Of a stretch of 64,000 nucleotides of DNA, positions 5,520 through 33,337 are shown in pieces. The position numbers and the translations under genes are program-made. Source of the DNA: Adineta vaga (taxonomy: Eukaryota > Animalia > Rotifera); the NCBI GenBank assembly GCA_021613535.1, contig CP075496.1, positions 1-64,000 of the forward strand, in the 5' to 3' direction. Numbering within the stretch: the stretch's first letter is position 1; the number at the start of each line of letters is the position of its first letter. The notes beneath the pieces were generated by a model, which was given only the letters and a program-made list of their open reading frames with translations, searched no databases and was not told the DNA's origin.

Positions 5520-5525
5520 TCCAGC

Positions 5526-10700: not shown

Positions 10701-11423
10701 GAAAAATAATAAGAAATTATCATGAATCAAATGCGTAACTTACTGGCCATTGATGTTGTTCACGTCCAATATTTAAATATAATTCCCATAATTCTATATC
10801 AGCTTTCAAACAATAATACCGATCCAATAGATCTAAGCGTCGATGAATAAATATTTGTAGATCTTTTTGCTTTACAGAATAATTTAACTTTTTGCTTAAC
10901 ATTTGAAAAAGTATTATAGGTGACCGTTTCAGATACATTGGTCTTCTATAAATAGAAATAAGTATATATGTTATGAATAAATAATAAATAAATATATAAA
11001 TATAAACCGATATTTCATATTGGTCGAAGGAATATTCTCCCTGATCATATGCATTTCTGCTGTGGATTTCCTATTGTCTATTTTCTTCTTTGTTGATTGA
11101 GCAACTGACGATGAACTAGTTGATTTTGATATTGCTGAAACCGAAGTTATTTCTTGTAATGATATATCTCGTTTCCTTTTATTTAAATTTGTTGGTATTG
11201 TTGTTATGGTATCAAAAACAATACCATTCATAATATCTTGGATATAATCATTCATTCGATTATTTTGACTATTGATTTGTCTTCGTTCATTGATTAATTT
11301 TTCAATTCTAGATGATTTCATTCCACGTTTACGACATTTTCTTCGAAAGCATTGATTTTTTCGATTACCATGACATTTCTTTCGTCGTCGTCGTCGTCGT
11401 CGTCGTTCATTAGTAGTATCCAT
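7718..11423 (-). CDS. Athena (Penelope-like) reverse transcriptase with N-terminal basic/coiled-coil region, 7 exons, ~1118 aa, apparently intact
   Basis: Exons 11423-11008, 10945-10744, 10676-9821, 9760-9207, 9153-8654, 8609-8262 and 8198-7718 splice in phase (the 10677 acceptor is the least certain); motifs DKG, YFNPKTHK, RPI, FCTFDIHNLYT, GGAMGS, RYIDD, LPFLD, YHKP; no C-terminal endonuclease. Confidence 0.92.
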
Positions 11424-11577
11424 TTGTAGACTTTTGTTAGTATGGTTTAATAAATCTGAAATAAATGAAAAATCGATAAAATTTTGTTTAGAATAGAAAT
11501 ATGAATATATGAATGATAGAATAGTTTGAAAGAAGAAACAAATTAGAAATAGTTTTTGTATAATCAATCTCATCGTT

Positions 11578-12861
11578 TTACATATAGTTGAATTGGTTGC
11601 TGAAGATGAATTCATGTTTTAGTTTGTGGTTCAGGATAAAGTTGGCATATTTGACCATGTGTAATCGACGAGCTTCAATTGCTTTTAATGCAGCTTTATT
11701 ATGTTTAATTTCGGATCTAGTAGGATCTTCCTTTGGTGAACCTATGTCTTGCTGATATTGAATTGTTTCTGCTAATTTGCTCTTCTGTTTATGATTTTCT
11801 TCGATTTCTTTGAAGATAATATCTCTTTTGAGAGTTTGCAATCGGTTCATTTCGTCTGAGATAACGTCACTAGCTATTTCATTGACTGTTACATCATCTT
11901 GTGTACGTTTTATAAAGTAATCGATGTCATTTAATGTACGATGGATCGAATTAGGTGACAAACATGGTTGTAATGAATTAAGACGATATTGCAACAAAGC
12001 CGTTTCTCCTGCTATTTTCACTTGTGTAATTGTCATATCCCAAATACGTTCAGCTGCACGGGTCTAAAATCAAATCAAATCAAATTAAATTAAATACATA
12101 GAAACATGAAATACAATAAAGTTTATAGATAAATGTCTTACATATGTACTTTTTCGTTTTATCTTGAGAAACTGTTGAAGTAATTCATGATCGGTAACAT
12201 CCAACTTTAAGCAGGCCTGTTTGAATTCAAATTCATCTCGTAATATTTTTTGTTTTTCTTCAACAAATGTAAGAATAGTAATGAAAATTCTGTATCTGTA
12301 ATAATCTACGTCGTTGTCACCTTCATAATCCGGAAACTTTGCATATTCGAAATCATCAATTGCATTTCTACCCTTTTCTTCATAGTATTGGATTCGTGCG
12401 AGATATTTTTCAATAGCTGCTTTAGATCGACCATATGTTTGACAAATTGAGTACTTCTTTGCCAGATATTTTGTTACTTGACCATTCCAAATATTTTCCA
12501 TTTTACCAAGATGATAATAATATTCCCAATGTTTTCTTTGTAGTTTCAGAAAAGAAAAGTGATCCAGTAATTTTGTATATTGACGAATACATTTTATTTT
12601 CTCGTCTTCATATACACGCCAATCAGTAGATTCATGTTTATCAAAAGCATCGAATATTAAGTCCAAGAATACTGAATCAGGTATTGAATCATAGTTATAG
12701 AAGTAGTCCATGATTATCGAAGGTATTGACGTAGAATCATTTGATTTGCTTTTCTTTTTCTTTGTTTTGTTGACTAATGTTGATGAATCGACGATAATTT
12801 CACTTACATATGACGAAGTCGACTCGTGATCATCTTGAAACGAAGCGTCGTTTATATTCAT
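11578..12861 (-). CDS. Stand-alone coiled-coil ORF (Athena ORF1-like), 2 exons
   Basis: ATG at 12861, intron 12064-12141; helical; shares W..Y..LG...W and E..LL..R features with the other CC ORFs. Confidence 0.7.
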
Positions 12862-12940
12862 TTGTAATGATAATAAGAATGAGAACAATTTTCAAGTTTA
12901 TCTGAAATAGATGGAAAAATTTTTAAAGAAAAAGTAATTC

Positions 12941-14353
12941 CTAAGAAATAGTTGAACGTTGAACTAAAGTTTGTTGTATTTTATATTTATAGATACATTG
13001 TAGCCGTTCACTTATTATTTGACAACGTTGATCGATTAGTTGAACCATCGTTTGAGATATGTTTTGATTACTATCACCTGCGTGATAATTAGACCACATA
13101 TTTTTCACTAAATCATTATATTTCTTTGTATATTCTTCTTTTTCCTCTTCCATTGAGTTCATATAAATCTGGAATAATTTTGTTTGTGATTGCAAAGCAA
13201 TCTCTTTGTATCGATTTGAAAGATATTCTCGTTTGTCAACATTTTGAATTGAATTAATTAATTCTGATTGAGCTATGGGTGTTTTTTCAAATGATTGACT
13301 TGGTAAATTGTAATAGATGATTTGTTGGTTCACTAAATGATATTCTTGTTCTATAAATTCTTGTGCATATTTCGTCTGACATAATTCTTTCATGAGTAGA
13401 ACCTAGAATGTAATATAGATAAAACTAACAAAATAATTTTAAAGAGTAGTAATTTACTCGCCTGGTATTCATTTGGATTATGTCGAAAGTATTCCAATTT
13501 CAATGCTCGAATTTGATAATCGTAATGGAGAAGTTCAATTTGATGTTCGATATCACTACGAAAGGTTTGTAGATTCTTTTCAATATATACTTCAATCAAA
13601 TTTTGGATTGTAAAGGAATAACCAGGATAATGATTGGCTTTTGTGTTCATTGCACATTGATATGCTTTCAATTGACAATCCAGTTTATGTATGTGTTTAT
13701 TAACAAAATTATATTGAACTCTTTTTTCTTCAGTTTTATCTATATTTTTCATTGGTACCATTGATTTGACTTGTGTTGGCCACATTGAGAAATTCATAGC
13801 ACAGATAGATTCTGTTTGTTGTATCTGAGGAAAAAGTTGTCCTGTACCAGATTTAAACAAAGATGTCCAGAGATAATGATATGTTTGAATGATCATTATT
13901 TTGTAAATTAGGATAATAATTTCGATTAATTTGTCTTTATCATTACTTGGAATCATTTGGATAGTTGTCGATTGTATTTGATTGAGTAGTTGTTGAAAAG
14001 GTGTATGCTGTTCCATTAGATATCTGGGGATTTCATTATTTTAGTCTTCTGATCTGCTATTGAGAATTTTTTGTGAGCAGTTGTTAAATGCATTGACATT
14101 TGTTTAATTGGCTAAAAATAGAGAGATATGTATGTTTTTTAAATCATGAAATGTGTTCAAATAGAGTGACCTGCACTTGTTCTATCTGCTTTTCTGTTGT
14201 AGTAGAAGTTTTAATATTCCATGGAAGATCAATTGCCATTTTTTCGAATACCATCATCGTATTGCATTCATCCATATTTGCAACAGTACTTGTCATTGTA
14301 GTACGATGTGCCAATAAAGGTGATCCAGTGAGGGTACGATTAGGTTTCTCCAT
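12941..14353 (-). CDS. Stand-alone coiled-coil ORF (Athena ORF1-like), 3 exons, probably frameshifted near 14030-14100
   Basis: LWTSLFKSGTGQL...MWP motif shared with the CC ORFs at 21-26 kb; GC-AG intron at 13403-13461. Confidence 0.7.
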
Positions 14354-14809
14354 AATCTTGAGGTTAAATTATTAATCGAGGAAAAAGAATACAAATCTAA
14401 AGACTAAACAAAGATCAAATAAAAGGCTTAGATTAGTTTGTGTTCATGTAAACGTTTTCTATTTAGTTTAATCAATACTAAAAGAAGATTTGATTGCATA
14501 TATGCGGTTTTGTGAACTTCTACTACTTCTGGATTATACTTTGTATCATTTAAGATATGGTAAGAATTCATTGTAGGAACTGATCACTTGAATCACCTAG
14601 AAATAAAATAAACAATTTCAAACTCTCACAGAATTGAAGTATTTGATATAATGATGTTTGTTTGTTTGTTTGTTGAGTAGAAATAAAATATTATCTGGAA
14701 TAAATGACAAAAAATATTATAAGGAGTAAAATAAACTTCTGAATTAGAATATAAACTGATATGATTAATTATAACATATTAAGAGAAGAAAAAATGAAAT
14801 AGAATATAA

Positions 14810-16800
14810 TTAGCAATATTGAATGACTACATTACGACACCAATCACCGCGATCCTTCACTTGTGCTTCGATGATGTCCTTGTTGTTACCATTCTTATTC
14901 CTATTATTATCATCATCATCATCATCATCATCATCGTTGTTGTTGTTGTAATGAAACCGACCGGCTGTATTCAATCTACTATCAGTATGAATAATAAATA
15001 AGGATTTAACAAATCGTCGAACAAAATCAACTGCATCATTTGGTACTAAAGATTTAAATGGAATAGAAGAATGAATATATTACAATATCAACTACTTTGT
15101 GATACTTACAAACAGCAATCACTGCCACATTGAATAAATCGATGGATCCATTTAGTTTGACTTTTGTATCCGACAGGTTTTTAAAATATTGAAACTGTTC
15201 AATACGTTGACGAATTGAAAATGTATAACCTGTTGGTAATGGTGGTATTTGTCGCATACAGGTTCGAACCTGTTCATCGGAACGAGTATTCTGTGTTTTC
15301 TGAATATCATAGCGATTGCGCGAACCAATTGAAGTTGGATTGACATTATCATGTAGAATTAAATGTTTAGGTAAAACATAATTGCGATCGTGTTGCATTG
15401 CTTCGTTGATAGTTACTGGAATAAAACGCCAATAACTTGGATTATATTGTAGAAATAATTGAATAGTCCATGGACATCGAGCAGCATGTTTATATAGAGA
15501 CATGCGATCTTTTCGAATTGATCTATTGGACAAAAGTTGATGATTTAGCAAATTTGTCTGTTAAACAAAAACTATTCTATAAATGACTTACTCAGAATCT
15601 TTCTCTCCCATTCTGGTGAGTTTAACATTTTCTTCACCAATTAAAAATTCATGTATAATTCGATTGAAATGTTGACGATGATCTTTGAAAGAGAGACAGA
15701 GATTAAATAATAAAATAGCTGGTAACTTACAGCATAAACAATCGCCTAATTTTTGACTTGTTTCACCAATATATTCAACGTTATTACAAGGACAAGTCAT
15801 GACATAGATAATGTTTTGTGTTTCACAATCAGCTGGACAATTAAGAATAGCTTCATAACCATTGGTAAAGCGGAACTTTTGACTTGGACCATAACGAATG
15901 TTTGATTGTTGGTGACGATCTGAATTCATCAGTGGTACACATAGTGGACACTTATTGCAAGGAACTAATCCATATCGAACATCTGGTTCATCAATACAGT
16001 AGAGACCTTCACCTGTCGATCGTGGATTAGCAGAACGAAATGAACATGTTTTCATAAAAAAAAGATCAACTATAAACAAATAAAAAAAGGCTAATATAAT
16101 ACAGAAGAAAACTTATTCTTTTACCATCAATCTGTAGATAGAATTCGAATGCATAGAGTTTTTGTTTTGTTGAAAGTTCAAGATTTTCAAGAGAACATCG
16201 ATGATGATAATAACAGTATTCATTAGTAAACATATTATAACAGTTTTTGAAACGAGCTAAATTATGATCCAATACTGATTCATCAACATTGTATTTGTTA
16301 ATTAAATTATTCATTATTTGGCGATAACCATCAACAAAGTAGGATGCAATATCAGAACATTCTGGTTTAATAGTATATACCAGTGGATAGCGATCTGATT
16401 GACGAGATGACACTTGTTTCCGATTGAGTTTATGTTCTCGATATTCAATATATATATATATATATATATATATATTTCGAAAAGAAGAAAACATACTTGG
16501 TACATTAGCCAATAATAATGGTGGTCGATCATCAAAAAATGGAGATGGAAATGCTGGTAAAATACGATATCGATCACTAGATCCTTGTAATGTATGTGGT
16601 AGATACGGTGTCGGTGCCAATACAAAATGTGGTGATGGTGATTGAAGTGGTAATTCATCTATGACAATTGATACGCCCATTAGATCGGTAATCAAAGACG
16701 TCGTAACTGATGGTGATGAAGTTCGATTATTCACTGGCAAGTCATTCTCCTCTGCATCTTGAAGAGATTGTTCAAAGCTTAATGATCGACGAGAAAACAT
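14810..16800 (-). CDS. GIY-YIG-like endonuclease with Cys-rich (Zn) motifs, copy 3, multi-exon
   Basis: CPADCETQNIIYVMTCPCNNVEYIGET; C-terminal exon FVKSLFIIHTDSRLN...WC; paralogous to 28299-29927. Confidence 0.8.
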
Positions 16801-16955
16801 GTGTGTTAATCTAGAATAGATGAAATATGAAGAACTTCTTCTTTTCACTGATACATGCATAATTTCAGAAATGGTTAACTGATTCAATAAAATAAGAAAA
16901 CTGAAAAGAAAAAAAAAAGCATAGAACGAAAGTTTGATTAAAGTTATATAAATAA

Positions 16956-18950
16956 TTATGGTAATCGCCGATGGAAAACGTGAGCACACCATGTATTGCG
17001 TAGAGCTACATTCGGATCACTTTTATCATAGACCAGATTTCCAATTTGATTCAATTTGCATTCAGCATGCGTGACAAATAATGATTCAACGAAGAAGCGA
17101 AATAATTCAGATGATTGATCAGGTACTAGTAGTAAAGAATAGAATTGAAATAGAGATGAATGTGAAGAAGAAAGAATTCTATGTTATGCTTACAAACAGC
17201 AACAATATCTGCATTGTAAAGATCAGGATTTTCACTTGGTACAATACGATCTTTAGCACATTTGAAAAATTGTGCTTGTTGTTGACGTTGTTGCATTGAA
17301 AATGTAAAGCCAATTGGTGGTTTTGGTACATTTTCAATTAAAAAATGAACTTCTTCAGCATCTCGAGTCCATACAGGTTGTTCAGTTACCGATGACCATG
17401 TTTCATTTTCACTTGTTCGACGAAATGGTGAACGTCGATATTCGGCATTGACCAAATTAATTCCCATGAGTCGTATCGGTACCAAGCACCAATAATCAGG
17501 ATTTTCATCCAGGAATAATTGCATAGCGGTTGAACAACGTGTTGAATGTTGATAGAGCCATGATTGATCATTAGCACGTTTTCTATAATAGATTCGGAGA
17601 AAAAGAAGAAGAAGAAAAAGAAGAAGTTTGTACTCAGTAGATTTACGACCATTTGTAAGATGTTCAACATTGATTTCACCAATGAGAAATTCTCGAATAA
17701 TTCGATTACCTTCTTCTCGATGATCTACAATCAAAGAATAGGATAATCTTGAAGATGATAATGTCCTGAGAAGAAGAGAGAGAGAGATGAATCATAACTA
17801 ACATGCTAATGTTGTACTAAATGGTAATGCTGTTTGACCAACAAAATCAAATTGATCACATGGACAAGTTAAGGTATAGATGCAATTTGTTGTTTCACAT
17901 GTTGCTGGACAATTTAGAATAGCTTCATAACTATTGACAAATCGATGAATATGTGGATTCGAAAAAGGAATAATTATGTTTTGTTCTGGATTCGTTGCAA
18001 AACGACGTGGACATGTTGGATGACAACATAGACAATAGCGTTTATTGCATGGTGTAATAGCAAATCGTGCTTCTGGATCAATACCACAGAAGAGACCTTC
18101 ATGAAAACGATTAAACAAAATACGTGGTTCAGCATTATTAAATGAACATGTCTTGAGAAAGAACATATCAACTAGAAATAAGCATATGGAATAATCTCAT
18201 CTAGGACAACTATTTTATTACTTACCATCAGTTTGTAAATAGAATTCCAATGCTAATGACATTTCATTGAAACTTAACATAGTTGGACCATAACCACGTT
18301 GTATAGCAACTTTTTCAATACATTGTTGAAGCCGTTTTAAATTAAAATCAATAATTGACGGGTCGATTTTTAACCGTTTTCTTGTATTGACATAGACAGT
18401 TCGATGGAAATCCCACATATATGAATTGTGAACACATGTTGAAAGAATATTTTGATTTGCTTGAATCTGTGTATCCACTGTCAATTTGAATAGTGGAAGA
18501 TATGCACTATGACGAATACGATTAAATTGTTCATCTGTTAATCGTTCGACTAGTCAATAAAAACACAGAATTAATTATGAAAATTCAGAATGACTTACTC
18601 CAGACATTGGCTAGTAACAAATGAAGTGTTTCTATATTTGTCATCGTTGTTGCTGTAGATAATGCTGAAGATGATAGTGAAACTGGAGGAAAAACTGGTA
18701 AAACTGATGCACGAGCCAGATTATGTTCACCAAGTGTACGTATTTGATATGGTTCAATAACAGTACCAATTGAATCATTAGCATCAGTCGTATTCATAGG
18801 AGCTAACGTTGGCAAAGTTGGACTATTACGTGCAGTTGCTGTTGGTGAAAGAGGATTCATATAAGCCATATAGAGTTCTTCACTTTCCAAATACATTGCC
18901 AACAATTCATCTGCAATAGTCGCTGTTGTTGATGGCTGTTGTTGGGCCAT
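16956..18950 (-). CDS. GIY-YIG-like endonuclease, copy 2, multi-exon
   Basis: CPATCETTNCIYTLTCPCDQFDFVGQT; last exon FVESLFVTHAECKLN...WC. Confidence 0.8.
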
Positions 18951-19079
18951 AATTGTTTGATTCAATTACAAAATCTACAATTGCAAACAAAAATTAGAAA
19001 GAGAAAAGTGAATCAATTGAATTTAGATGAAAACTTTAAAATAAAAAGCATGCAAACAAACGAGCAAAAAGCAAAATCT

Positions 19080-21017
19080 CTATTGAGCTAAGAGAGTATT
19101 AGATGAATAGCAATGTTTAGTTGTAAGACGAATTTGTAGGCCTGCTTTTTGAAAACTAGGATCTTGATTAAGAATCGTAGACCAAATGTGATAAAATTTC
19201 TGATTAAATTCATATCTTCCGCCCCAATCATATAAATAATAGAATTCAATGGAACGATATTTTTGTTGTTGTTCTTCTCCTAATGTATATTTTTGTTCAT
19301 TGAAATATTGGAAGAATTGAGTACGAAATGAATTGTATTGTGTTCGATTGAGATACAATGAATTTTGAGATGGATAGAATCGCTGAAGAAATTGTTGTTC
19401 AAGATATTCAATAAAATCCAATGAATAACCATTGGCAAGAAATGTTAATTCAATTTGTAGTCGTTCTTCTTGAAAATCAGCTAGAAAAGAACAATAGTGA
19501 ATAGCACGTGCAAGTGCAAATCGAAACCATTGCCGATGAGTAATTCTTGGATGTTTGCTTGCATATGGTAATAGAAAGAATTGTTTATGATTAATATCAT
19601 GATAAACACATGTCATTAAACGTCCATTGACATTTTCAATATATGCATCAAGAAAATGTACATAACTACCACTTGATTCTGTTAATTGTACGTCTGGATG
19701 TTGTTCATTCAATTCAAGAATACATGTACTGAATGAGTCCGTTGAATTGTTCCATGTCAGAATACCTTTTTGATGATATCGTCCATAGAATCCATGATTC
19801 AAACGAACAAGACGAACAAGTGGTAATTGCCAATATTGCAGATAAATATCAATTAATAATTCTATTAAAGGTAAGTTCATTGGACCACCACGACGATATC
19901 GATAGATTTTTTTTCCATCATAGATAAACATATTATTGGATAAAACTAAACCAACTAATTCCATAATGCGAATAACTTTTGATTGATCTTGAGGCTTGGT
20001 AGTATTGAATTGATGATCTAAGAAACGTTTTAATGTATTGAGTAAATCTGTATGTGTTACTCTTGTTGATAAATTATGAATTTCATATGTAATAAAACGT
20101 GTATTTAATGTAAAAGAATCACTTTGTGAAGTAAACTGTTGTAGTTTTTGTATAAAATCAACACCATTAATTAATTTTGTTGATTGAGCAAATTTCTCAA
20201 ATAATGGTCGTAAAAAGTGATCAAGATATGTTGATAATTTGTAGATAGGAGACTTGAGACATGATGAAAGTCTTGGCTTTACTAACGTATTATCATCGGA
20301 CGGTTGTGGTAAAAAATAAAGATATGATAATTTCATTTTTGATGAATCATTAATATGAAATTTTTCTAAATATTCCATCGATATAAGACGTTTCAGTTCC
20401 AATTGATTCAAAGTCATATTGAATGTTTTTATTATTTGATTTAAATGCTGCTCTTCTGAATTCAATTCATCAATAGTATGAATCATTTCATAACAATTCT
20501 GATTATTTTCCATATAATTCAAAGATTTCATTTGGAATTCGATTCGATCACCAAGATAATATGTATTATAGTCATCTGCAGTTCGTTTGAGGATTAGTTG
20601 ATCTTTTTCTAATTGATATTGAATTGATTGAATGACTTCATTTTCATAACGAACTCGTTTTTCAAGTGGAACAGATATAGGTTGTGTAAATGATTTGACA
20701 AATTCTCGTTCGATTTGTCGTCGAAAAGTACTTTGACGTTCACGATCAATAGAATATCGATTGAAAAGTGTTGTTAATTGTCGACGAAGTGGCATAATTT
20801 GTTTGGTAAGAATTTGACCCATTGTTGTTGATGATGTTGATAAGAGATGCATTTGACATGGTATGACATAGCATGGTCCACGATTGAGAAATTGTAGTTG
20901 TTCATAAGATAGATGATGTAATACATTTTGAAACATACTTGGTGAACAATTAATATTGGAGAAAAGGCTCCGACGGTTCAAATCGAGTTTTTGACCGTCG
21001 GAGCATTGACGAAAAAA
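19080..21017 (-). CDS. Catalytically dead Athena RT homolog B (intronless), translated by -1 frameshift from the upstream CC ORF
   Basis: RT-fold motifs are colinear with the active RT, but motif A reads ITYEIHNL and YIDD is replaced by YHQK; long open frame (646 aa). Confidence 0.85.
   Translation of the reverse strand, partial: FFRQCSDGQKLDLNRRSLFSNINCSPSMFQNVLHHLSYEQLQFLNRGPCYVIPCQMHLLSTSSTTMGQILTKQIMPLRRQLTTLFNRYSIDRERQSTFRRQIEREFVKSFTQPISVPLEKRVRYENEVIQSIQYQLEKDQLILKRTADDYNTYYLGDRIEFQMKSLNYMENNQNCYEMIHTIDELNSEEQHLNQIIKTFNMTLNQLELKRLISMEYLEKFHINDSSKMKLSYLYFLPQPSDDNTLVKPRLSSCLKSPIYKLSTYLDHFLRPLFEKFAQSTKLINGVDFIQKLQQFTSQSDSFTLNTRFITYEIHNLSTRVTHTDLLNTLKRFLDHQFNTTKPQDQSKVIRIMELVGLVLSNNMFIYDGKKIYRYRRGGPMNLPLIELLIDIYLQYWQLPLVRLVRLNHGFYGRYHQKGILTWNNSTDSFSTCILELNEQHPDVQLTESSGSYVHFLDAYIENVNGRLMTCVYHDINHKQFFLLPYASKHPRITHRQWFRFALARAIHYCSFLADFQEERLQIELTFLANGYSLDFIEYLEQQFLQRFYPSQNSLYLNRTQYNSFRTQFFQYFNEQKYTLGEEQQQKYRSIEFYYLYDWGGRYEFNQKFYHIWSTILNQDPSFQKAGLQIRLTTKHCYSSNTLLAQ
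20967..21017 (-). promoter_or_regulatory. -1 programmed ribosomal frameshift signal B
   Basis: Slippery T_TTT_TTC, 6-nt spacer, 11-bp hairpin GCTCCGACGGT/ACCGTCGGAGC. Confidence 0.85.
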
Positions 21018-22435
21018 CATACTTTAAGATCATAGAGAGTTTGAAGACGTTCATCAATATTTTTAAAACGTTGTTTCATAATATGGCACATTTGTTCAGT
21101 AAGTTTTCCATCGGCTAAATAAGCACGTTGTCGTTGTTCAAATTGTTTATATTCCATATCAAATCTTTGTGTATACTCTTCCATTTTAGCTTCAGCTGTT
21201 CGAATATGAATTACTAACATGTCAGATTTCGTTCGTTCTAATAATTGTTCATAACGATAGATTAAACGTTGTCGAACATCTTTATCTTGAACCGTTGTTA
21301 ATGTTAATGGTGCTGGTATTCGAACAGTATGAAATAAATCAGAATAATGCTGATGAGCAACACGTTGTTTCAATAGAGCAACTTCCATTGTAGCCGTTTC
21401 TTTATTTAATTTACTTTGAGAAAGATTTTCAAATATTTTAAGCTAGAATTAAGAAAAAGAAAGAGATATCTAGTTAGTAGGAGAAAGAAAAAGTATCGAA
21501 CTTACTTGATCAGCATAGTAAGTTTCATGATGAAAATCAGATACAAACAATCCATCATAATAATCATATTTAATTATTGCAATTTGACTTTCAATGAATA
21601 TTTGATGTAATGCGATTCCATATTCTTGAACATAATTTTTGATTGTTTCATTTATTTCTGATGTAAAACGATAATTCAATTTTACTTTGCAATCATTTAG
21701 TTGACTTTCAAGAGTTCGAGATTGTTTTCGTAGATCAGTCAATTTTTGTGAAACATAATTAGAACATGTTTCATAAGTTATTTGATTGATTTGAGTACTG
21801 TTGTGGTTAGGATCGGCCAATATAATTGATTTCAATTTTTCTGGCCAAATACGAAGTGGTGTCCGTGTCGTTGTATGAAGTATTGTAGACATAGATATTT
21901 GCCATACAGATGGTTCAGTATTAATCAATTGACCTGTACCTGAATGTAAATAAGTTTTCCAAAGTGAAACATGTAAATTGAGTAATGCCAATTGATGTTC
22001 AAGATATGCAACTTGTCGTAAATCTTCTATTGTTAAATTACTTGTATTTGCTTGAAGATATGGATGCATAATTTGTTCAAATGTTTTACTATCATTTAAT
22101 AAATAATCAGGCATTTCATCTGTTGTTGATATGGGTTGAATCAAGTCACTTTTTAATTTTTTCATAATTGATGTTGGTGATGAAGGTGTTAATAATGGAC
22201 GTTTTGTTGTTGTTGTTGCTGTCGTTTGTTCATTTGAAGGCGATAGTTGATTTAATTTCTGTGATAAATGTTGTTCAGTATCATTATTGTCATTATCATC
22301 ATCATCACGATTGTTAGAATTTTTACTAGGATTGGTAAAGTGTTCTAAAAAATCAATATCTAGATCATCTTTTTCATCCAAATCATCACCATAATCATGA
22401 AAGATATCATCGAAACGATTTAATTCGCCTGACAT
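20978..22435 (-). CDS. Coiled-coil ORF B (Athena ORF1-like), 2 exons
   Basis: In-phase intron 21443-21505; ends FFVNAPT overlapping RT-B in the -1 frame. Confidence 0.8.
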
Positions 22436-22661
22436 TTCTTTGTCGAAGTGTTAATTAAAATCTAGAATAAAAAAGAAAGATCAAATGAAAAGAATAACAA
22501 ATAATTTTCTTGATTAAAATGATATATAAGTTGATTATATTTTACTTTGAAAAGAAAAGATTAGAAAAAAAACATGCACAGAAGGTAGAAGCAAGAATCT
22601 AAATAAAAAACAAAACAAAGGATAAGTAATGATTGAGAATAAGATGTTCGAAAACTTACAT

Positions 22662-24696
22662 TTAAGCTTGATTATTGAAATGTTGTTGAACCAAAAGAGT
22701 ATATGATGAATAGCAATGTTTCGAATTTAAAATAATTTTAAAGCCATTTACTTTCACTTTAGGATCTTGATTAATAATTTCAGACCAGAGCTTATGAAAT
22801 TGTGCATTGAATCGGCAACGATTGCCCCAATCATACAAATAATATAAAGAAATCAATCGATGATTTCGAATGAGTTGTTTTTCTTCATCTCGAACCGTTT
22901 TTTGTTGTTGTACATAGCGAAGTAATTGTTGTCGAAGACCTATGAACTGATCTTGATTTAAATGAACATTCGTTTGATTGGTAATTGTATATCGTTTGAA
23001 AAATTTGCGTAGATGATATTCAACAAAATCCAATGAATAACCATTGGCAAGAAATGTTAATTCAATGTATTGTCGTTCTTGTTGAAAATCTTCTAAATGA
23101 GTACAATATTGACCAGCACGTTGTAGAGCATAATGAAACCACTGTCGATGTATTAATCGTGGATGATCATAAGCATAGGGTAATAAAAATAATTGTTTCA
23201 TTGGATCATGATAGACATTTGTGTATAATTGACCATTTTGATTTTCAATATAAGCATTTAAAAAATAAGCACTTTTACCAATAGTTGTTTTTAATTTCAG
23301 TTCAGTTGGTAAAGAAATTTTGATTTTATTGATTACATGTTGTAGTTTTTCTTTTGTACCATTCCAAGTAAAGAAACCCATATTATGATAACGTGCATAG
23401 AATTCGGTTCCAAGACGAATATCTCGAATCAATCGAATTTGCCAACGATGCATATAAATACTACCTAAGACTTCTGCGAATGATAAATTCAATGGACATC
23501 CTTGAAGATATTTATGAAGTTTTTTCTCATAAATAAAATAATTATTTTGTAAAACGATTTTTGCTAATTCTTCAATTGTATCGACTGTAAATTGAGCAAA
23601 TCGACCAGTCAATGTTTGACTGCGTAAGAATTGATTTAAAGCCAATAATAAACTTGAATGGGCAATTTGAGAATAAAGATCAGGAACTTCAAATGTAACA
23701 AAATATGTATTTGCTGTTAGATGATTTGCTTGTTTACAAAAATAAGCCAGTTTTTGTATAAAATCACTACCATCATTCATAACTGTTGCTTGACAACTAC
23801 TTTCTAGCATTGGTCGAATATATTCATCCAGATACATAGATAATGCATAGATTGGACTTTGACGACATGATGAAAGTCTTGCTTGTAATAAAGAGATATC
23901 ACCATTCTAAGTAGAGAAGAAGCAAAATGGAAAGTTAATTTAGGAAAAATAACATTACTTGATTCATTTCTGGTAGAAAATACATGTATGGTAATTCGAA
24001 ATTTGTTTTTTTACCAAGACGAAATTTTTCGAAATATTCTTCTGTAATCATTTTATTTTTATATAATTTTTCGAAATTAGAATCAATTGATTTGATAATT
24101 TCATTGAGTTGTTGTTCTTTTGTAGAATTAATTTCATCGATAACACATAATAATTTATAACGTTTTGAATTTTGAATATAATATTCAGCTAAGTTGTAAA
24201 AATCTTGTGTTGAACCAAGATAATATGTATTATAATCATCTTGGGTTCGTTGTAAGATTAATTGATCCTGTCGAATTTGTTTTTGTATTGATTCAATTAA
24301 TTGTCGTTCGTACAATGTACGTTCTTTAACAGATGATGGTAATGGTACAGAAAATGATTCCAAGAATTCTTTTTCAATCATTTGATTAAAATTCATTTGT
24401 CTTGAAATATCAATTGAATGTTTTTTAAAAACTTTTGCTAATTGATGTCGTAATGATGTCATTTGTTTGAAGACGATTTGATTTAACATTGAATCAGTTG
24501 GAATTAAATGCATTTGACCTGGTGATACATATGTTGGACCACGTTGAAGAAATTGTAATTGTTCATCAGATAAATGATGTTTGGCATTTTGAAACATTGT
24601 TGGTGAATAGAACAGAAAGGATGATTTGTGATTAGAAATAATGCTCCGACGGTGAATCAAATCTAATTCATATCCGTCGGAGCTTTGACGAAAAAA
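22662..24696 (-). CDS. Catalytically dead Athena RT homolog A, 2 exons, reached by -1 frameshift
   Basis: Intron 23907-23958; motif A FVTFEVPDLY; YIDD replaced by YHNM; clearly paralogous to RT-B. Confidence 0.85.
24643..24696 (-). promoter_or_regulatory. -1 programmed ribosomal frameshift signal A
   Basis: Slippery T_TTT_TTC, 6-nt spacer, 10-bp hairpin GCTCCGACGG/CCGTCGGAGC plus an inner TGAAT/ATTCA stem. Confidence 0.85.
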
Positions 24697-26217
24697 CGTA
24701 ATTGTATTTTGTAAATCGTTAAAATCCGTTGACTTTGATTTGTAAAACAACGATTCATAATATCACACATGGTTTTTGTTAATTTTTTATATGTTGGACC
24801 ATGTACTTGATCAGCTTTAAATTGTGCCATATCATTATTAAATTTCTTTTCAGTTTCATTCATCTGTACTTCCATAGTAGCCAGTTGAACAGACGTCATA
24901 TCAGATATCGTTCGTTGCAAAATTTTATCATATCGTTCAATTAATCGTAAACGCATATGTTCATCTGTAATAGCATCCAATGCTTCTGGTCTCGGTAAAT
25001 CAAATGTTCTAATATTATCTGGTAAATAATTATGAACAATACGTTGTTTTAACATAGCTACATCCATTTTTGTTGTTTCTTTTGCTAAATGAGCTTGTAA
25101 CAGATTTTGAAATGTATTGATCTGTAGAAGAAAAACAGAACTTATAAATACTAATATAAGAAATTGATAACATACATGATCTTGAAATGGATTTTCTCGT
25201 TTAAATTCCCATTCCAATGCATGATCAGTATAATGAAATTGAATTCGAGCTATTTCTTGTTCAATTCGAAGACGATGTCAAACAATACCATGTTGTTCAA
25301 CAAATTGATCAATTGTTTTTTCCATTTCCGAAGTAAAATGTGGATGAATCGTTTGTTTCAAGTGTTCTAATTGACCTTGATAATGTGTTTGTTGGATTTG
25401 TAATTGTTCCAATTTTTTATGCACATAACTTAAACATGCTCGGAGATCGACTGTTTCCATGTCAGCCGAAGTAGTACTAAGACGTTCTTCTTCAACCATA
25501 CGCATTTTTACTTCTTTTGGCCAAAGAGGAAGATGAGTTTGTGATTCTACCTGTTTTTGATTGACTTTCAAGTGACCCATACCAGATTGTAAATAAATTG
25601 TCCAGAGTGTTTGATTGAGATCAACTAATGCTAATTTATGTTTTAAAATAGCAATTGATCGCAATGTTTCCATTGGTAAATTAATGCCTGATTGTTCAAT
25701 AATAGGAACAATAAAACGTTCAAAAAATTTACTCTTCAATGATAGATATTGCGGTGCATCATCCACTGGTTGTTCTATTACCACTTTTAATTTTTTTGGT
25801 GCTGTTGCTGCTCGTGTTGGTGTTGATGGTGTTAATACTGGTCGTTTTGTTCCACTCGCTTGTACTTGTTGTTGTTGTTGTTTGTTGTTGTGATGCTGAT
25901 AATTGACGAAATTGTTGTGATAAACGTCCTTCTTCTTGTGGAATAGTTGTAGAAGCAGCAGCAGCAACAGGAATTGTTTCATCCAATTCATTGGATTCCA
26001 ATTGTACTGGAATAATTTGTTCGTTTCGACCAAAATTCATAAAATGATAATCAAAATCAACAGGTTGATCTTCATTTTCATCAGCATCATCATTTTGACC
26101 ATGATAAATATCAAGAAATCGATTGATTTCACTACCACCCTATAACAATGCAGAAATACAAATGAATTAAAAGTATATTAAGAGAAAAAAACATACTTTT
26201 TTATTTGAACCAGCCAT
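24663..26217 (-). pseudogene. Coiled-coil ORF A, 3 exons, with a +1 indel (~25882) and an in-frame TGA (25278-25280) in this copy
   Basis: Introns 26140-26196 and 25122-25175; colinear with CC-B across both lesions. Confidence 0.75.
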
Positions 26218-26339
26218 TGTGAACAAAGAGAAAAATAATCTAGTATTAATTATATCTGAAAAAAACAAATAAACAACTAAGAATGAAAATATAAGTGAAA
26301 TAAAATAAAAAAGCAAAACAAAAACTCATATTACAAATA

Positions 26340-27335
26340 CTAGTGTATTAATGGTGAGCGAACTAAAAAGAGAAAGACAAAGAAACGTACAGCAAAAAGA
26401 AAATTGAAGTGTGAACTTACAAGATATGATGGTCCAATGATTGAAGCTAATTTAGTTGTTGCAAAACAATCATTCGTGGCATAATTGATTAATTTTAATC
26501 GTTCTTGATTTTCTTTTTCTGTTAATGATGATTTCATCAGACGAATATCCAAGCCAATTCCCCAATTACTGACTGTAAGAGATTTATCCAAAAATTCTTC
26601 CAGAACATTGGCTACAGCTCTTTGTAAAGCCCATGGGTTATTCTGTTGTTTGTAAGGTCGATGAGAACATGTACAGCTTGGATCATCTTCTTTGTCTTTG
26701 ACTATGGCCATAGAACAGTAGGAATCATGTGGATATGTATCATTGTACCAATATTTGAATTCATCTTGTACATTAATGATTTCTAACTGATGTAATGGTA
26801 TGCATTTAAATAAGGGATAGATATTAAATTTGATTAACTCTTTTTTTTCATTTCCCCATGCAAATAATGTTTTCGATGGATGAAATATGGTGTTGATTAG
26901 CCGTTGGATTTGTAAATAAATTGGTGATTTGATTGATGGCATATGAAACATTTCAAATACAATAATATGTTTCTTTTGTTCATTTTTGTCACTTTCTACT
27001 AGAGATGACACAAATTCTACTTGTATTAAAGCTGGTTGTTTTGAAAAGTCATCAATTTCTGTGTCCACAGTAAAATAAGCTGTTCGATGAGCCAATTCCC
27101 GTAATCGAATAAGACCAAAGAAAAACGACATCGAATTAATAAATATAAGTTCATATGTTTGTTTATATGAAAAGATTGGTAATTGACGACTTAATTCTTC
27201 ATTGAGTTGACTTTTTTTCTTATTATGATTCCATTGTCGTTTTCGTTGTTGTAAAGTTTTCGATTTTTTCTTCGAGCTTTGTAGAACATCAAGTAATGAC
27301 ATGAGGACAATTTCATCATTAATTAATGTAGCCAT
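26340..27335 (-). CDS. DEDDy 3'-5' exonuclease (RNase D/WRN-like)
   Basis: ExoI motif FTVDTE, ExoIII motif YATND, FAWG; the true C-terminus is probably cut at the GTAAGT donor at 26420. Confidence 0.82.
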   Translation of the reverse strand: MATLINDEIVLMSLLDVLQSSKKKSKTLQQRKRQWNHNKKKSQLNEELSRQLPIFSYKQTYELIFINSMSFFFGLIRLRELAHRTAYFTVDTEIDDFSKQPALIQVEFVSSLVESDKNEQKKHIIVFEMFHMPSIKSPIYLQIQRLINTIFHPSKTLFAWGNEKKELIKFNIYPLFKCIPLHQLEIINVQDEFKYWYNDTYPHDSYCSMAIVKDKEDDPSCTCSHRPYKQQNNPWALQRAVANVLEEFLDKSLTVSNWGIGLDIRLMKSSLTEKENQERLKLINYATNDCFATTKLASIIGPSYLVSSHFNFLFAVRFFVFLFLVRSPLIH

Positions 27336-27535
27336 TTGATTGATAAAGTAGAAAATTCGAGTTTAGAGTAAGATTTGTGAAATAATCTAGAATAAAAAGC
27401 GAGAAAGAAAAATGATAATATAAGATTCAAATGAACTGATTATATGAGATATGAGATATAGTTGAAATGAAAACATGCATGTATGAATAAAAATGAAAGT
27501 TCGATGAGTTCTGTAAATGTTGATTGATATCTTCT

Positions 27536-28162
27536 CTAGGCGGACATGTAGCCATGGTTAATTCTGGTAATTTCACCTTCCAATGATTGTAATGATGATT
27601 GTAATGGTGTTTTGGGTTGGCGTTGTTGTTTAATAGACGATTTTCGGTTTGATGGTGTTACTGATTGTTGTTGTTGTTGCTGTTGTTGTGCACGATTAAT
27701 GATTCGCTGGCAAAAACATGAAATGAGCCAATCACATAGATTAAAGCCACTTCGAAAGACGCAAAAATAGACAAATATACCAATAAACGATGTGATGGTA
27801 AATATAGCAACAATGTCTCGCCAACTTGAAAGGATTGGACCAGTTTTTGTATGATGATCGTTGATAGCATCAGCAACAAATGTAGCATTGATTGAGTTGT
27901 TGATGAGATAATTGATCATTGTTCGATGATCATTGATGGTTGTTTGTAATGCATGTATATTAAGATTACCTGCATCTGTATTCCGTTTTTGTCGATGCTG
28001 ATGAGTTATATTTTCGAATATAGGTACACAAGGTGTTTGTTTTAACAGAATGATTATTTGTTGTAGAGTCATTGTATGTGAACATGTAAAGACTTGACTG
28101 GTTAGCTGACAATTGACCAAACCCATAATAAGACATAAACCAATATAATGAATACTAATCAT
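27536..28162 (-). CDS. Small type-I membrane protein: signal peptide, RQKR site, heptad-like segment, TM helix
   Basis: Hydrophobic N-terminus, RQKR at aa ~57-60, TM IVAIFTITSFIGIFVYFCVF, Cys-rich juxtamembrane tail. Confidence 0.75.
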   Translation of the reverse strand: MISIHYIGLCLIMGLVNCQLTSQVFTCSHTMTLQQIIILLKQTPCVPIFENITHQHRQKRNTDAGNLNIHALQTTINDHRTMINYLINNSINATFVADAINDHHTKTGPILSSWRDIVAIFTITSFIGIFVYFCVFRSGFNLCDWLISCFCQRIINRAQQQQQQQQSVTPSNRKSSIKQQRQPKTPLQSSLQSLEGEITRINHGYMSA

Positions 28163-28298
28163 TCTGAACTAAATTTGCTTTGTGTAATTGCTTGAGGGTG
28201 ATGAAAACGATCGATATATCTAAAATAGTAAAACAAATAGGAAGAATAGATAAAATAGAATAAAATAGCAAATGAAAAGAAAAATATATTAAGAAGAA

Positions 28299-29927
28299 TT
28301 AGTTATCTTGAGGATGGCATAGATTTTCACACCAAACACCTTGATTTACAGGAGTTCGAAGAGGATATTTGAAAATATGACCTAATTTATTCAGTTTTGC
28401 TTCAGTATGTGTAACAAATAACGAATGAACAATTTGACGAAATGTTTCCGATGAATTCGATGGTAAAACAGCAATCATTGTTGCTGTATAAACATTATAT
28501 CGAATATCATTAAAATTTTCATGTAATTTATATTGAAAGAATTCATATTGTTGATGAAGTTGTTGTTTAGTAAATTTAAAACCTTGTGTTGGTGGTGGTA
28601 CATTATTAACTAGTTGTTGTATGTGTTTATCATACTTTTGATGTTCAGTTGTTCCTAATTGATATTGTTGATTTGCTTGATGAGCGAGTGCATTTGATAC
28701 TGGAACAAATATCCAATAACTGTCGTTAACATCCAGAAATGATTGGATTGCACTTGAACAACGTTTTGGATGTTGATACAGACGACAAGAATCTTTTTTC
28801 GTCATATTCAATGTTCTCTTACCAAAGCATTTTTCATAATTTGCCGAACCCATTAACTGTTCAATGATAAGTCGATGAGTAATGGCATGATGAGTTGCTA
28901 AACGTTGCCATAATAGACCACTAGTTTCTCCAATAAAATCATATTCACCACAATGGCATGTCAAAGTATAAATTATATTTTTTGTATTACATGTAGCTGG
29001 GCAATTTAAAATTGATTCATATCCATTAACAAAACGATGTTTTTGATAACTATTAAATTGTACATCATATTTTTGTTGTTTTTTTCTTGGACTACATGAT
29101 GAACATATTTCGCAGGCTATTTGATTGCACCGTTTCATAACATAACGACATTCAGGCATTTCTGAACAGAAAATTCCTTCAGTTTGTGATCGAGGTTGTG
29201 CTTGACGAAATGAACATGTTTTCATATAAAATAAATCGACATCAATTTGTAAATAAAATTCAATTAATTGTTTAAACTCACTATCATTTAAAGTAAGAAT
29301 AATATTAGATGAACGGAATTCTTGTAGAATACGAACATATGCATTTTCACATAATTGAATAACTTTTTTTAATCTTGAATAACTATAATCCAAAAGAGTA
29401 AAACCAATATTGAATCGTTCCATTATGTCTGGTCCATAATATTTATGATAAAAATCTGCTAAATGTGATGCTGTAATAGTAGATGGTTTTTCGATGGGAA
29501 TAGAACATACAATTTTATCTGGATGTCGTCGTGCAACTTCTTTTTCAGATAAGTGTTGTACTGGAACACTGGATAATAATAAAAATACTGTTCGATCAGA
29601 TTCAGAATCGAAAGCCATATCATCATCAACAACAACATTGATATGTTGATTAGATATTTGATCTGACGGTGGATAAATAGGTAAAATTGTTAATCGTTCT
29701 TGATTACATGCTTCCAATGTAAATGGTTGATAAGATGGTTGTGCTAAACCAATGGGTGATGGATTTGCATTGATCATTGATGTAGTTGAATGAGTAGTAG
29801 TAGTAGCAGCAGCAGCAGCAGCAGCAGCATTAAGACAATGTGCATTATCATTATCATCTGATGATGAAGATAATTCGATCAGATCGATTGTACGCTTAGA
29901 AGGATTAGGGCGATGTGAATGTGCCAT
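28299..29927 (-). CDS. GIY-YIG-like endonuclease, copy 1, intronless, 542 aa
   Basis: CPATCNTKNIIYTLTCHCGEYDFIGET...QRLATH, CxxxxCxxC, KLN. Confidence 0.85.
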   Translation of the reverse strand: MAHSHRPNPSKRTIDLIELSSSSDDNDNAHCLNAAAAAAAATTTTHSTTSMINANPSPIGLAQPSYQPFTLEACNQERLTILPIYPPSDQISNQHINVVVDDDMAFDSESDRTVFLLLSSVPVQHLSEKEVARRHPDKIVCSIPIEKPSTITASHLADFYHKYYGPDIMERFNIGFTLLDYSYSRLKKVIQLCENAYVRILQEFRSSNIILTLNDSEFKQLIEFYLQIDVDLFYMKTCSFRQAQPRSQTEGIFCSEMPECRYVMKRCNQIACEICSSCSPRKKQQKYDVQFNSYQKHRFVNGYESILNCPATCNTKNIIYTLTCHCGEYDFIGETSGLLWQRLATHHAITHRLIIEQLMGSANYEKCFGKRTLNMTKKDSCRLYQHPKRCSSAIQSFLDVNDSYWIFVPVSNALAHQANQQYQLGTTEHQKYDKHIQQLVNNVPPPTQGFKFTKQQLHQQYEFFQYKLHENFNDIRYNVYTATMIAVLPSNSSETFRQIVHSLFVTHTEAKLNKLGHIFKYPLRTPVNQGVWCENLCHPQDN

Positions 29928-30029
29928 TGTTATAAGAAAATGTATATCTACAATAAAAATAAAAGAGCATTATAAATTTGACGAATTAAAATAAACACAA
30001 AAAGAAAAAGAAAAAGAAAAAATTGATCA

Positions 30030-30518
30030 TTATTTATCCTCATCCGAAAGATAATGTACATCTTCGACTATATGAGTTGATGTGTGTATATGTGAAGTTT
30101 TAAGCCTTTTACATGTTATATCACTGAGATAACTTTGTTCGTAAGATCGTTTTGATTCGTTAACCACTGTAATTTCTTGTTCACAGTCGACATCATTGAC
30201 GACTTTGATTAGCGATTCAAATAAATCATTTTGAAGAATTCGTTGAAAATATTGAGGCGGAATACAGATGCTATGCTTGGCCAAGATTCTTTGAATTCGA
30301 TCGTTTCTTTCAGTTTCATTTTCAATTGTTAATATAATATCACCAAGTAAGCCACTTCTTGCCATTCGCTTTCGATAAGCATGTGGAATGAACACATTTT
30401 TTAAATGGGACAGACGCTTGAGTTGTTTTCTTTCATTATATTCTTCTTCTAAAAAATCTTCTATTGTCGATGCAGTTTCAATTGAATCGATTGATGGAGA
30501 TGAAGATAAACTTGTCAT
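30030..30518 (-). CDS. Unknown 162-aa protein, first cistron of the array
   Basis: Open frame with good ATG context, ~80 nt downstream of a TATA box. Confidence 0.6.
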   Translation of the reverse strand: MTSLSSSPSIDSIETASTIEDFLEEEYNERKQLKRLSHLKNVFIPHAYRKRMARSGLLGDIILTIENETERNDRIQRILAKHSICIPPQYFQRILQNDLFESLIKVVNDVDCEQEITVVNESKRSYEQSYLSDITCKRLKTSHIHTSTHIVEDVHYLSDEDK

Positions 30519-30559
30519 TGTTGTATAGAAGTAACACCAGTATAGTTGATATAATTTTG

Positions 30560-30935
30560 TTGAAATGGTATATAGACAATGAAAAAACTCAGGCTTTATA
30601 TAGGCTGAGAAGAGAGAGAGAGGAATGCAACTTTAATTGCGCATTTTATTAAGGGGAAATTCCATTGGCTTCTGATTTCAGTTGCTAAAGTCCATAGAAT
30701 GTTCTTTTTCTTTAGGGAGTGCTATATTTTGCACCCCCTTTTCTACAAAAGATCATAGTCCAAATCGAATGTGAGAAAATGCAACGACGTAAATCAACCA
30801 GATCCAGTTTATTTTTAGAGTGGGAGTCTGTTTTTTCTCTCTAGAATATTCTAGAGAGAGAATTAGAGAATTAGAGAATCAGAGATTCAGAGAGGGTATA
30901 TAAACGGTAGTTTTTATACAATCCTTTTCATTTTC
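30560..30935. promoter_or_regulatory. Putative divergent promoter pair
   Basis: TATATAAA on the minus strand at 30602-30595 and on the plus strand at 30897-30904 (TCATT ~33 nt downstream); short AGAGAATY repeats between them. Confidence 0.5.
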
Positions 30936-31647
30936 TATTTTGTTATTTAGACATCCACATCCAAATTCATCATATTCTAAATCGAAACTTCATTGGTAAC
31001 TTATAAACATATATAATTGCATTTTCTATGACTTTAATAGGTAATTTAACTGAAAAATGAGTGGTGAAAATATCTTCAAATACAGCTGAAATAATCAATC
31101 TACAAAATAAAAAGTAAATTGTAAGATGAAAGTTCTTTTATTTCTAGACAGAAACAAAAGTTTATCCAAAATATATAACCCATGAAATCACATGTATTGA
31201 ATACAATCCATGTTACAATCATTTATCAAAATTATATGATTACATAATGAACAGAGAATAGGACAAGCCATACCGGATGATAAAACAAAGTGCAATATAA
31301 ACAGGTAATGGTTTATTTTCTTTAATAAATAATATAATTATTATAGAAATGACTGTTTATTGAAAAAATAATACATGGGAATAAGTATTACAAGCAAAAC
31401 AAATGTGATTATGAGGATGGTGAAGAAAATAACAAAAATCATGTTCACGGTGGCCACATACATATTGAACAAAACCATTATTCACATCAGATTGAATTGG
31501 CAAGTGACATGTGAAGCAAAGAATCGATCGAGCCATCTTGAGGGTATGAATTAATTATCTAAAGAAAATGAGCAATCAAGTTCGTTTCATTTAGACTTCA
31601 AAAGTTCAAAAGAGAAAAGAAAATTTCAGTATTCGTTGTGGTTTATT

Positions 31648-32644: not shown

Positions 32645-33337
32645 GATGATCAATTTGAGTAGTTGAAGTAGTTGAGACGATAATGAAGATTTGTGATTCT
32701 ACACTAAAAAATCCTTCCCTTTTTATACTCTCGAAAATGTATGAATATTGCGCACATTAAATTCCAACACATATTCATATAAATTTATCTAAAGAACAGT
32801 TCAGAGTGTGAATTCCATGACGCAATTCAAGTTCAAATCGTCAATAATTCGTTCTGTTATTAATCATTTCAAATGAAAAAACATTCTTGTGATAGACAAT
32901 TTTATACTCTACAAATCAATAACCAAGGTCATTGTGAACAAATGCTTCCAGAATGAATTATTCATTAAGTACAAATATTATTATTCATAATTTCCAAGTT
33001 CAAAGTCCAAAAAAAATACAATCGTATCATTGCATATATTTCATGAAGAAAAACAGGCTTACATTCTATCTTCTTAAGAAGAAAAAAACAGACAAACATT
33101 CTATTTGAGAAGAAAAAGAAAAAAAAATATAACGAAGATAAAAAAAAGACAAGTCAAGAATTATTATACAATTCAAAATGAGCTCAAAAACAACATTTGT
33201 TAACATACACCAAGCAAAAACAATTATAATCAACAATATAAAATTCAAAAAACTAACGATAGAAAAACAAAATCATCATTTCATCACAGTCATCAGAGCG
33301 ATTCGTGATTGAATATTCGTCATCTCATATATCAATC

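Follow-up and report, generated by a model that had tools for sequence, protein, structure and literature searches.

Terminons, giant Penelope-like retroelements, are portrayed in excerpts of the literature (PMC6431247, PMC5408684, PMC5072296, PMC8557442) as tens of kilobases long, with co-oriented open reading frames (ORFs), an intron-containing reverse transcriptase (RT) and a 3′ hammerhead plus ACACCC, lying beside telomeric repeats; their accessory ORFs include stand-alone GIY-YIG-like, DEDDy-like, coiled-coil and membrane types. The same excerpts give no answer to how a 25–40 kb retroelement manages to express a dozen ORFs when its RNA must also stay whole. Rotifers carry out spliced-leader (SL) trans-splicing with a 23-nt leader (PMC3795323, excerpt), and an acceptor without a donor is the classical SL substrate (PMC5832876, excerpt); a loose precedent in the latter excerpt is the presence of SL sequence in six transposon genes of schistosomes. 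Here we analyzed positions 1 to 64,000 of Adineta vaga contig CP075496.1 (64,000 nt, hereafter the window), in which the minus strand from ~30.6 kb to 5.5 kb carries most of one bdelloid Terminon of ~25 kb, with eleven cistrons, all co-oriented, between 30518 and 7718 (C0 to C10 in 5′ to 3′ order). We found that the ten cistrons behind the first are each preceded by a conserved splice-acceptor motif, and consider it probable that the element is an SL trans-spliced operon inside a retroelement. All element coordinates below refer to the minus strand.

Judged by its sequence features, the element is a member of the known Terminon (Athena Penelope-like element) family. It has an RT-bearing last cistron with introns, GIY-YIG-like accessory ORFs, a 3′ end of hammerhead and (ACACCC)n, many co-oriented ORFs over tens of kilobases, and telomeric hexamer arrays in the same window (2–124 and 2541–2707), which bears out the retroelement assignment made in the original prediction, an earlier reading of the letters alone. 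The bdelloid assignment was likewise upheld: every homologue with an organism name was Adineta or Rotaria among 113 homologues of C1 and among 59 of the C5 RT-like protein, and SL trans-splicing is on record for rotifers (PMC3795323, excerpt). Pfam named no element ORF above cut-off, no GDSL or Rep ORF was recognized in this copy, and no relatives of the element were found among viral contigs.

The original prediction had placed ten acceptors just before start codons, and all ten positions are indeed the G of a minus-strand YAG with the first ATG 11–58 nt downstream. The sites read TAG/ATA at 29945–29950 (G at 29948, 21 nt to the ATG) and 28217–28222 (28220, 58 nt); TAG/ATT at 27384–27389 (27387, 52 nt), 22459–22464 (22462, 27 nt), 18972–18977 (18975, 25 nt), 16808–16813 (16811, 11 nt) and 14394–14399 (14397, 44 nt); CAG/ATA at 26253–26258 (26256, 39 nt, with a second TAG/ATT at 26240) and 12899–12904 (12902, 41 nt); and CAG/ATT at 11453–11458 (11456, 33 nt). 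They thus share the form YAG/ATW, with the slash marking the splice boundary and W standing for A or T. Short U-rich spacers had also been described, and the measured values agree (stop-to-ATG 74–226 nt, 43–60% T; stop-to-AG 31–200 nt, a trait of SL operons), with the 14397 spacer counted from a 47-codon ORF and amounting to ~410 nt if that ORF is disregarded.

We assessed these sites against dinucleotide shuffles of the spacers and against cis introns modeled from splice signals and frame continuity. A YAG 10–60 nt before the ATG was present in 10/10 spacers against 5.97 expected (joint probability 0.003), so the excess over shuffled spacers by this criterion is modest, and YAG alone is weak evidence because ~6/10 shuffled spacers yield one. 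The AT[A/T] continuation, which the original prediction had not noticed, was far more discriminating: YAG/ATW occurred at 10/10 sites compared to 1.23/10 expected in shuffles and to 1/23 modeled cis introns (Fisher P = 1.2 × 10−7), and plain AT after AG at 10/10 sites compared to 5/23 introns (P = 3 × 10−5). Scanning 33.5–5.4 kb gave 14 strict sites on the sense strand, nine of them the named acceptors, and four borderline sites on the antisense strand; 14397 drops out of the strict filter owing to a tandem AG. T content before the acceptors was only marginally above that at cis acceptors (0.57 vs. 0.53, P = 0.055) and for that reason was not used as evidence.

The acceptors also lack donors. 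A donor matrix was built from the 23 modeled introns (including one from an ORF at 32.5 kb, and excluding 16496 and 10743, whose acceptors were not fixable), all of which are 44–78 nt long, and the best GT 44–90 nt upstream of each site was scored, with leave-one-out for the introns. The median best donor was 1.1 bits at the ten sites, 6.7 bits at introns and 2.0 bits at random positions (sites vs. introns, Mann-Whitney P = 1.7 × 10−4). No GT falls within 44–90 nt upstream of 28220, and none lies between the C8 stop and the acceptor at 12902, 39 nt further on; the acceptor at 14397 is 31 nt past the stop of the small ORF. Two strong GTAAGT donors that had been noted near upstream stops, 26420 and 22659, do exist, but have nearer acceptors of their own, at 26363 (58 nt) and 22599 (61 nt), and because of these we read both as ordinary short introns and rejected them as partners of the start-proximal acceptors. 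The first is the last coding intron of C3 (26420–26363, 58 nt), and the second a predicted intron-like segment, GTAAGT...TTTAG, just past the C4 stop (22599–22659, 61 nt).

The claim that every ORF has an acceptor proved too wide: it holds for ten, and the RT-like ORFs at 24597 and 20936 (in C4 and C5) have no YAG within 60 nt upstream. Nor does C0, the first ORF after the TATA box, within the same distance. Both RT-like ORFs begin at a T TTT TTC heptamer followed by a hairpin of 38–41 nt, predicted as −1 frameshift signals at 24643–24696 (C4) and 20967–21017 (C5), a route that the original prediction had missed. The hairpin (GCTCCGACGG...CCGTCGGAGC) links coiled-coil-type ORFs to RT-like ORFs without YxDD, here and in related loci L002, L003, L007 and L008; it is kept in 6/6 aligned sequences with one compensatory pair, and as for the heptamer-like T run, the alignment view shows it complete in four sequences and with one change in L003. 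Ribosomes reading the coiled-coil ORF in front are thus predicted to enter the RT-like ORFs of C4 and C5 by a −1 frameshift. The putative 47-codon ORF itself (14428–14571, an ORF call in the C7–C8 gap) has no ATW site within 60 nt and one CAG/ATA 124 nt upstream, at 14695. Elsewhere in the window, no acceptor was found upstream of the hAT, F-box, seven-transmembrane (7TM), 43415 and 1104 starts. Separately, we observed a TAG/ATA in purine-rich context 49 nt upstream of the short-chain dehydrogenase start and a TAG/ATC after a T tract at the ORF at 56364.

We then quantified the signal in relatives, using 14 loci from a metagenome scan with 38–54% identity to the RT-like protein. Since L004, L005, L006, L008 and L009 are one element (98–100% identical), this element was represented by L008, beginning at 4200, together with the 3′ extension of L006. 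ORFs were listed without regard to acceptors, as every ATG-started ORF of at least 100 aa (n = 20), and then sorted by homology into ten cistron starts from six elements (L008, L007, L012, L001, L010 and L013) and ten internal ATGs, the latter comprising four RT-like ORFs behind the frameshift position and otherwise internal exons or truncated frames; L002, L003, L011 and L014 yielded no cistron start. YAG/ATW was present 4–42 nt upstream of 10/10 cistron starts and 0/10 internal ATGs (Fisher P = 1.1 × 10−5), three of the ten sites lying less than 10 nt from the ATG, outside the range given originally. As internal ATGs sit within coding sequence, shuffled spacers provided the composition-matched control: with the 10–60 nt range set beforehand, 12/14 relative spacers, five of the 14 involving small ORFs chosen by eye, carried YAG/ATW compared to 1.7 expected (P = 2 × 10−10), and 14/14 compared to 2.0 expected did so at 3–60 nt. 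The median best donor at these sites was −0.8 bits, three have no GT at intron distance, and none of six cis acceptors placed in L008/L006 is ATW. A candidate 27-nt intron (L008:11567–11593) was rejected as too short, its AG being the start-proximal site. The order of ORFs varies between elements, with GIY-YIG-like, DEDDy-like or unassigned ORFs following the RT-like ORF; because gene order varies while the signal is constant, the signal belongs with the start of each cassette, and selection on it is likely.

The spacers are further enriched in TGCATG, which we take to match the RBFOX binding site. A post hoc count found four copies in the ten spacers of the window, where 0.17 were expected, and four in the 14 relative spacers (0.16 expected), a total of 8 in 24 spacers compared to 0.33, ~48–125 nt before the acceptor. 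The window copies are at 27479, 22578, 19054 and 16859, or 92, 116, 79 and 48 nt upstream of the acceptors at 27387, 22462, 18975 and 16811, and the others in spacers of L001, L007 (twice) and L010. TGCATG is a candidate 3′ end or trans-splicing processing element. An A[AT]TAAA upstream of the acceptor was found in 5/14 relative spacers.

The TATA box CTATATAA (30596–30603; CTATATAAAG at 30603) is preceded by a CT-rich stretch and is the predicted main promoter. It had been reported as the only one, before the first ORF, and remains the single clear TATA context before an ORF within the element, although loose TATAWA matches are present in two spacers; the other CTATAWAW matches between 30.6 and 7.7 kb (15497, 12992 and 8168) all fall inside coding sequence.

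Contigs of four sequencing runs guessed to be RNA were aligned to 11200–31000, with sparse cover (depth 2–7) and most short matches being unrelated repeats. In X8 contigs, 17125 is followed directly by 17194, and 17724 by 17803; read on the plus strand, the skipped segments have CT..AC ends, and they are exactly two modeled C6 introns (17802–17725 and 17193–17126). If X8 is RNA, the two introns are removed by splicing, and transcription and minus-strand cis-splicing are then likely for C6, an internal cistron 13 kb away from the TATA box. Of the 10 long contig pieces displayed, none spans an acceptor (chance 0.29), and none so much as reaches an intron or acceptor (chance 0.013). Three long-range contig joints were discarded for lacking splice ends, and two contigs were left uncounted because contigs cannot show ends: one of X7 stopping without extra letters at 28218, the second base of a predicted exon, and one of X8 (28171–27451) ending 64 nt before the next acceptor. 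Viral and prokaryotic genome contigs gave no match to the published SL sequence, nor did the window match a 12-nt portion of it.

These results fit SL trans-splicing of a polycistronic RNA, because a conserved and largely donor-less acceptor precedes the ATGs and is absent exactly at the first ORF and the frameshift ORFs. One promoter at ~30.6 kb would give a single long RNA, and the short cis introns would be spliced out of it by the spliceosome of the host; a capped SL exon joined at each donor-less acceptor would then release one translatable mRNA per cistron. The two RT-like ORFs would need no acceptor, being read by the predicted −1 frameshift, as the slippery site and hairpin suggest. 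Unprocessed RNA would still have its introns, its spacers and the 3′ hammerhead-telomere end, and may serve as the template for reverse transcription, in keeping with its retained introns and the known Terminon model. An incoming ORF that brings such an acceptor could do without a promoter, and this would account for the growth and reshuffling of these elements. Generalized to the family, Terminons would be SL trans-spliced operons in which a dedicated, family-wide YAG/AT[A/T] acceptor expresses ten or more cistrons from one genomic RNA, often with TGCATG standing in for a poly(A) signal 50–125 nt upstream; a promoter-free plug-in grammar would let elements gain and reorder genes until they reach 40 kb, and whether an RNA is trans-spliced or left unprocessed would act as an expression/replication switch. 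We regard this wider proposal as an even bet.

Chance, with U-rich spacers yielding YAG sites that a reader then picked, accounts for a bare YAG in 6/10 shuffled spacers and for little else: the tallies of YAG/ATW in the window (10/10 vs. 1.2) and relatives (12/14 vs. 1.7), and the acceptor-blind split between cistron starts and internal ATGs (10/10 vs. 0/10), largely refute it and leave it very improbable. The motif could instead be real and serve another purpose, marking an RNA cleavage, start or reinitiation site or the end of a 5′ untranslated region (UTR) intron with a weak donor, with the long RNA translated by reinitiation. The bias at +1 to +3 is indeed unlike that of cis acceptors, the spacers are short and U-rich, and real introns of the window include donors down to ~0–2 bits; yet an invariant YAG behind a T-rich tract is what 3′ splice sites look like here, no GT at all lies at intron distance from three sites in relatives and one in the window, and a 5′ UTR intron within a polycistronic RNA would leave the downstream ATG unfreed. 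Nor can a promoter plus an intron fit in spacers as short as 31 and 39 nt. We hold this family of explanations to be quite improbable, slightly more so than virus-like alternative cis-splicing, in which one 5′ leader donor is joined to each acceptor.

Retroviral env and adenovirus late mRNAs are models of such common-leader splicing, which would explain donor-less acceptors without any SL, and strong unpaired GT sites do occur in coding regions (e.g., 28822 at 7.8 bits). The element nevertheless has no strong major donor near its 5′ end, the best between the TATA box and the first ATG scoring 3.1 bits and none in C0 exceeding 4.8 (intron median 6.7); with no strong donor after the TATA box, a common leader is disfavored. 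It would also need skips of 0.6–19 kb where all modeled introns are 44–78 nt, and no such joint with splice ends was seen among the contigs at their sparse cover, so that we judge it rather improbable. The original prediction had allowed both SL addition and a common leader; the former branch is now favored, with sites that are donor-less, distinct at +1 to +3, behind short spacers and conserved at 38–54% protein identity, and the latter is disfavored. An explanation closer to SL operons retains SL acceptors and starts each cassette from an internal promoter of its own, with an outron, in many cases within the ORF before it, yielding monocistronic trans-spliced genes and a separate full-length genomic RNA. 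Identical donor-less acceptors would result, and no poly(A) signal lies between cistrons; excerpts describe ORF3 of bdelloid long terminal repeat (LTR) elements as transcribed separately and spliced (PMC5408684), and report from other animals SL sites that are supplied by internal promoters (PMC5832876). Against it stand the single clear TATA context and the spacers of 31–39 nt, which together with the shifting cassette order would demand promoters within varying upstream ORFs. This version seems unlikely to us, if less so than the common leader.

Several observations count against a trans-spliced operon. Internal promoters inside upstream ORFs may be compatible with the sequence. The ATW motif was defined post hoc on the same ten window sites that gave 10/10. 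Plausible donors lie upstream of the acceptor at 22462 (4.6 bits, the highest of the ten) and of one relative site in 14 (L007:3892, 5.6 bits at 50 nt). None of the ten window spacers has an AATAAA-like A[AT]TAAA upstream of its acceptor, where a signal for 3′ end formation of the upstream mRNAs would be looked for. An acceptor also precedes a second small ORF upstream of the TATA box (31559). None of 24 of the 146 loose-end rows from the contigs resembles the 23-nt rotifer SL, contigs being unable to show 5′ ends. Finally, C4, C8 and C10 contain frame breaks, and the copy is decaying. An SL trans-spliced operon remains the reading that we prefer.

The cistrons of this operon-like array differ in how well they can be assigned. 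C0 (30030–30518, 162 aa) has no assigned family or Pfam match. C1 (28299–29927, 542 aa, intronless) is GIY-YIG-like, with several homologues named GIY-YIG domain-containing by UniRef, and C6 (16956–18950, 564 aa, five introns) and C7 (14810–16800, ~550 aa, five modeled introns, the first with an uncertain acceptor) are paralogues that match the same ORFs of relatives. C2 (27536–28162, 208 aa) is a predicted membrane protein, with two hydrophobic stretches recognized by eye and no Pfam match above cut-off. C3 (26348–27335, 309 aa) is labeled a DEDDy-like exonuclease from the motifs VDTEI and YATND, which we take to be diagnostic; Pfam and PDB searches gave no match. C4 (22662–26217, frame break near 25770, stop at 25280) and C5 (19080–22435, coiled-coil-type ORF of 464 aa with one intron) each combine a coiled-coil-type ORF with an overlapping RT-like ORF without YxDD, the coiled-coil label here and below being borrowed from published Terminon descriptions and not a computed prediction. 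C8 (12941–14353) is a coiled-coil-type ORF with a frame break near 14020; a TAATG stop-start overlap at 14018–14014 was rejected as a reinitiation signal because the homologous frame reaches further upstream, making a frame break likelier. C9 (11578–12861, 401 aa, one intron) has no assigned family. C10 (7718–11423) has a coiled-coil region, with a frame break in its 5′ part, running into an RT with YIDD whose part of the ORF holds four introns; its exons match P0058, which carries PF00078, and bdelloid P0055/P0056, with E down to 1e-81. Further acceptor-like sites at 7566 and 7120, L006:8165, L008:11401 and L012:349 precede 22–50-codon ORFs or no clear ORF and lie near 3′ ends and between cistrons; the ORFs behind them are possible micro-cistrons or decayed cassettes.

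At the 3′ end, a hammerhead-like fold with a variant core (CTAATGA...AAAA) is followed by ACACCC repeats (5503–5572), and a near-identical copy with a canonical core lies at ~2760–2690; Rfam detected a hammerhead in neither the 5.5-kb nor the ~2.7-kb copy. The latter is part of a short minus-strand unit (2690–3500) whose TATA box (3280) has CT-rich surroundings resembling those at 30603 and is followed by two hammerhead-like motifs and a long ACACCC array. Additional hammerhead-like motifs were seen at ~4470 and 4247, and a pair at 63601–63869 resembles those at 2.7–3.0 kb and 5.5 kb. On the other side of the element, upstream of its TATA box (31360–32700, minus strand), an ORF ending at 31648 with one intron is followed by a 59-codon Cys/His-rich ORF preceded by the TAG/ATA at 31559, with a further site at 31100; this may be a second acceptor-bearing unit 5′ of the element.

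The remainder of the window holds further features. A separate TATA box at 38834 precedes a spliced ORF ending at 37904 and an AATAAA at 37742 (37742–38834, minus strand), with telomere-like repeats before it. An hAT transposase with BED finger and dimerization domain (39784–42432, minus strand) is flanked by two similar ATTTATAAAT-rich arrays (39187–39385 and 42741–42805). On the plus strand are a short-chain dehydrogenase gene (46219–46968) that lacks introns and is broken by a stop near 46460 and a fragmented LDL-receptor/EGF/7TM gene (48401–53922). A near-perfect 84-nt hairpin at 59866–59949 is probably a miniature inverted-repeat transposable element and has a weak Rfam mir-548 match below gathering score.

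The conserved expression signal is apparently undescribed in this known element family. In the literature searched, judged by title or abstract start, no paper deals with trans-splicing of the ORFs of Terminons, of Athena or of other retroelements of bdelloids, with the primary Terminon paper (Arkhipova et al. 2017), the rotifer SL paper and their supplements outside that scope and a prior description possible; "trans-splic" is absent from PMC8557442 and PMC7943196 by term search of the text available, and the "splic" passages in excerpts of PMC6431247, PMC5408684 and PMC5718144 include none on Terminon expression. The analysis yields ten nucleotide-level junction predictions in one copy, and the motif locates cistron starts in diverged families, making it a practical aid for Terminon ORF annotation. 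If true, our proposal would describe a retroelement organized as an SL operon, offer a reason for giant-element growth in an SL trans-splicing lineage, and suggest a route for the immediate expression of captured genes.

Compared with known systems, the element shares with Terminons/Athena its size, its co-oriented ORFs of stand-alone GIY-YIG-like, coiled-coil-type, predicted membrane and, by motif, putative DEDDy-like types, its RT introns, 3′ hammerhead-ACACCC end and telomeric-repeat neighborhood, and the excerpted descriptions of those elements are silent on ORF expression, the donor-less YAG/ATW acceptor and TGCATG enrichment. The predicted −1 frameshift for an RT-type ORF is common to retroviruses and the Juno and Vesta LTR elements with ORF3, as is the expression of downstream ORFs through an acceptor with unspliced RNA as the genome (for the LTR elements, PMC5408684, excerpt); these, however, rely on a cis donor or on separately transcribed units, with one acceptor or a few, and no strong leader donor was found here. 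An AATAAA-type signal upstream of the acceptor belongs to the C. elegans SL2 type and is not shared by all SL systems; here there is none before the acceptors at which SL addition would take place. The SL operons of C. elegans, Ciona, Oikopleura and chaetognaths, with spacer medians of ~30–110 nt (PMC7986045, PMC12460157, excerpts), have in common with the element short spacers, an acceptor before each downstream ATG and a first gene often without one. The ten downstream cistrons here exceed the nine-gene chaetognath operon quoted as longest in the same excerpts, and whereas those operons consist of host genes, this one would be a mobile element whose unprocessed RNA must double as template.

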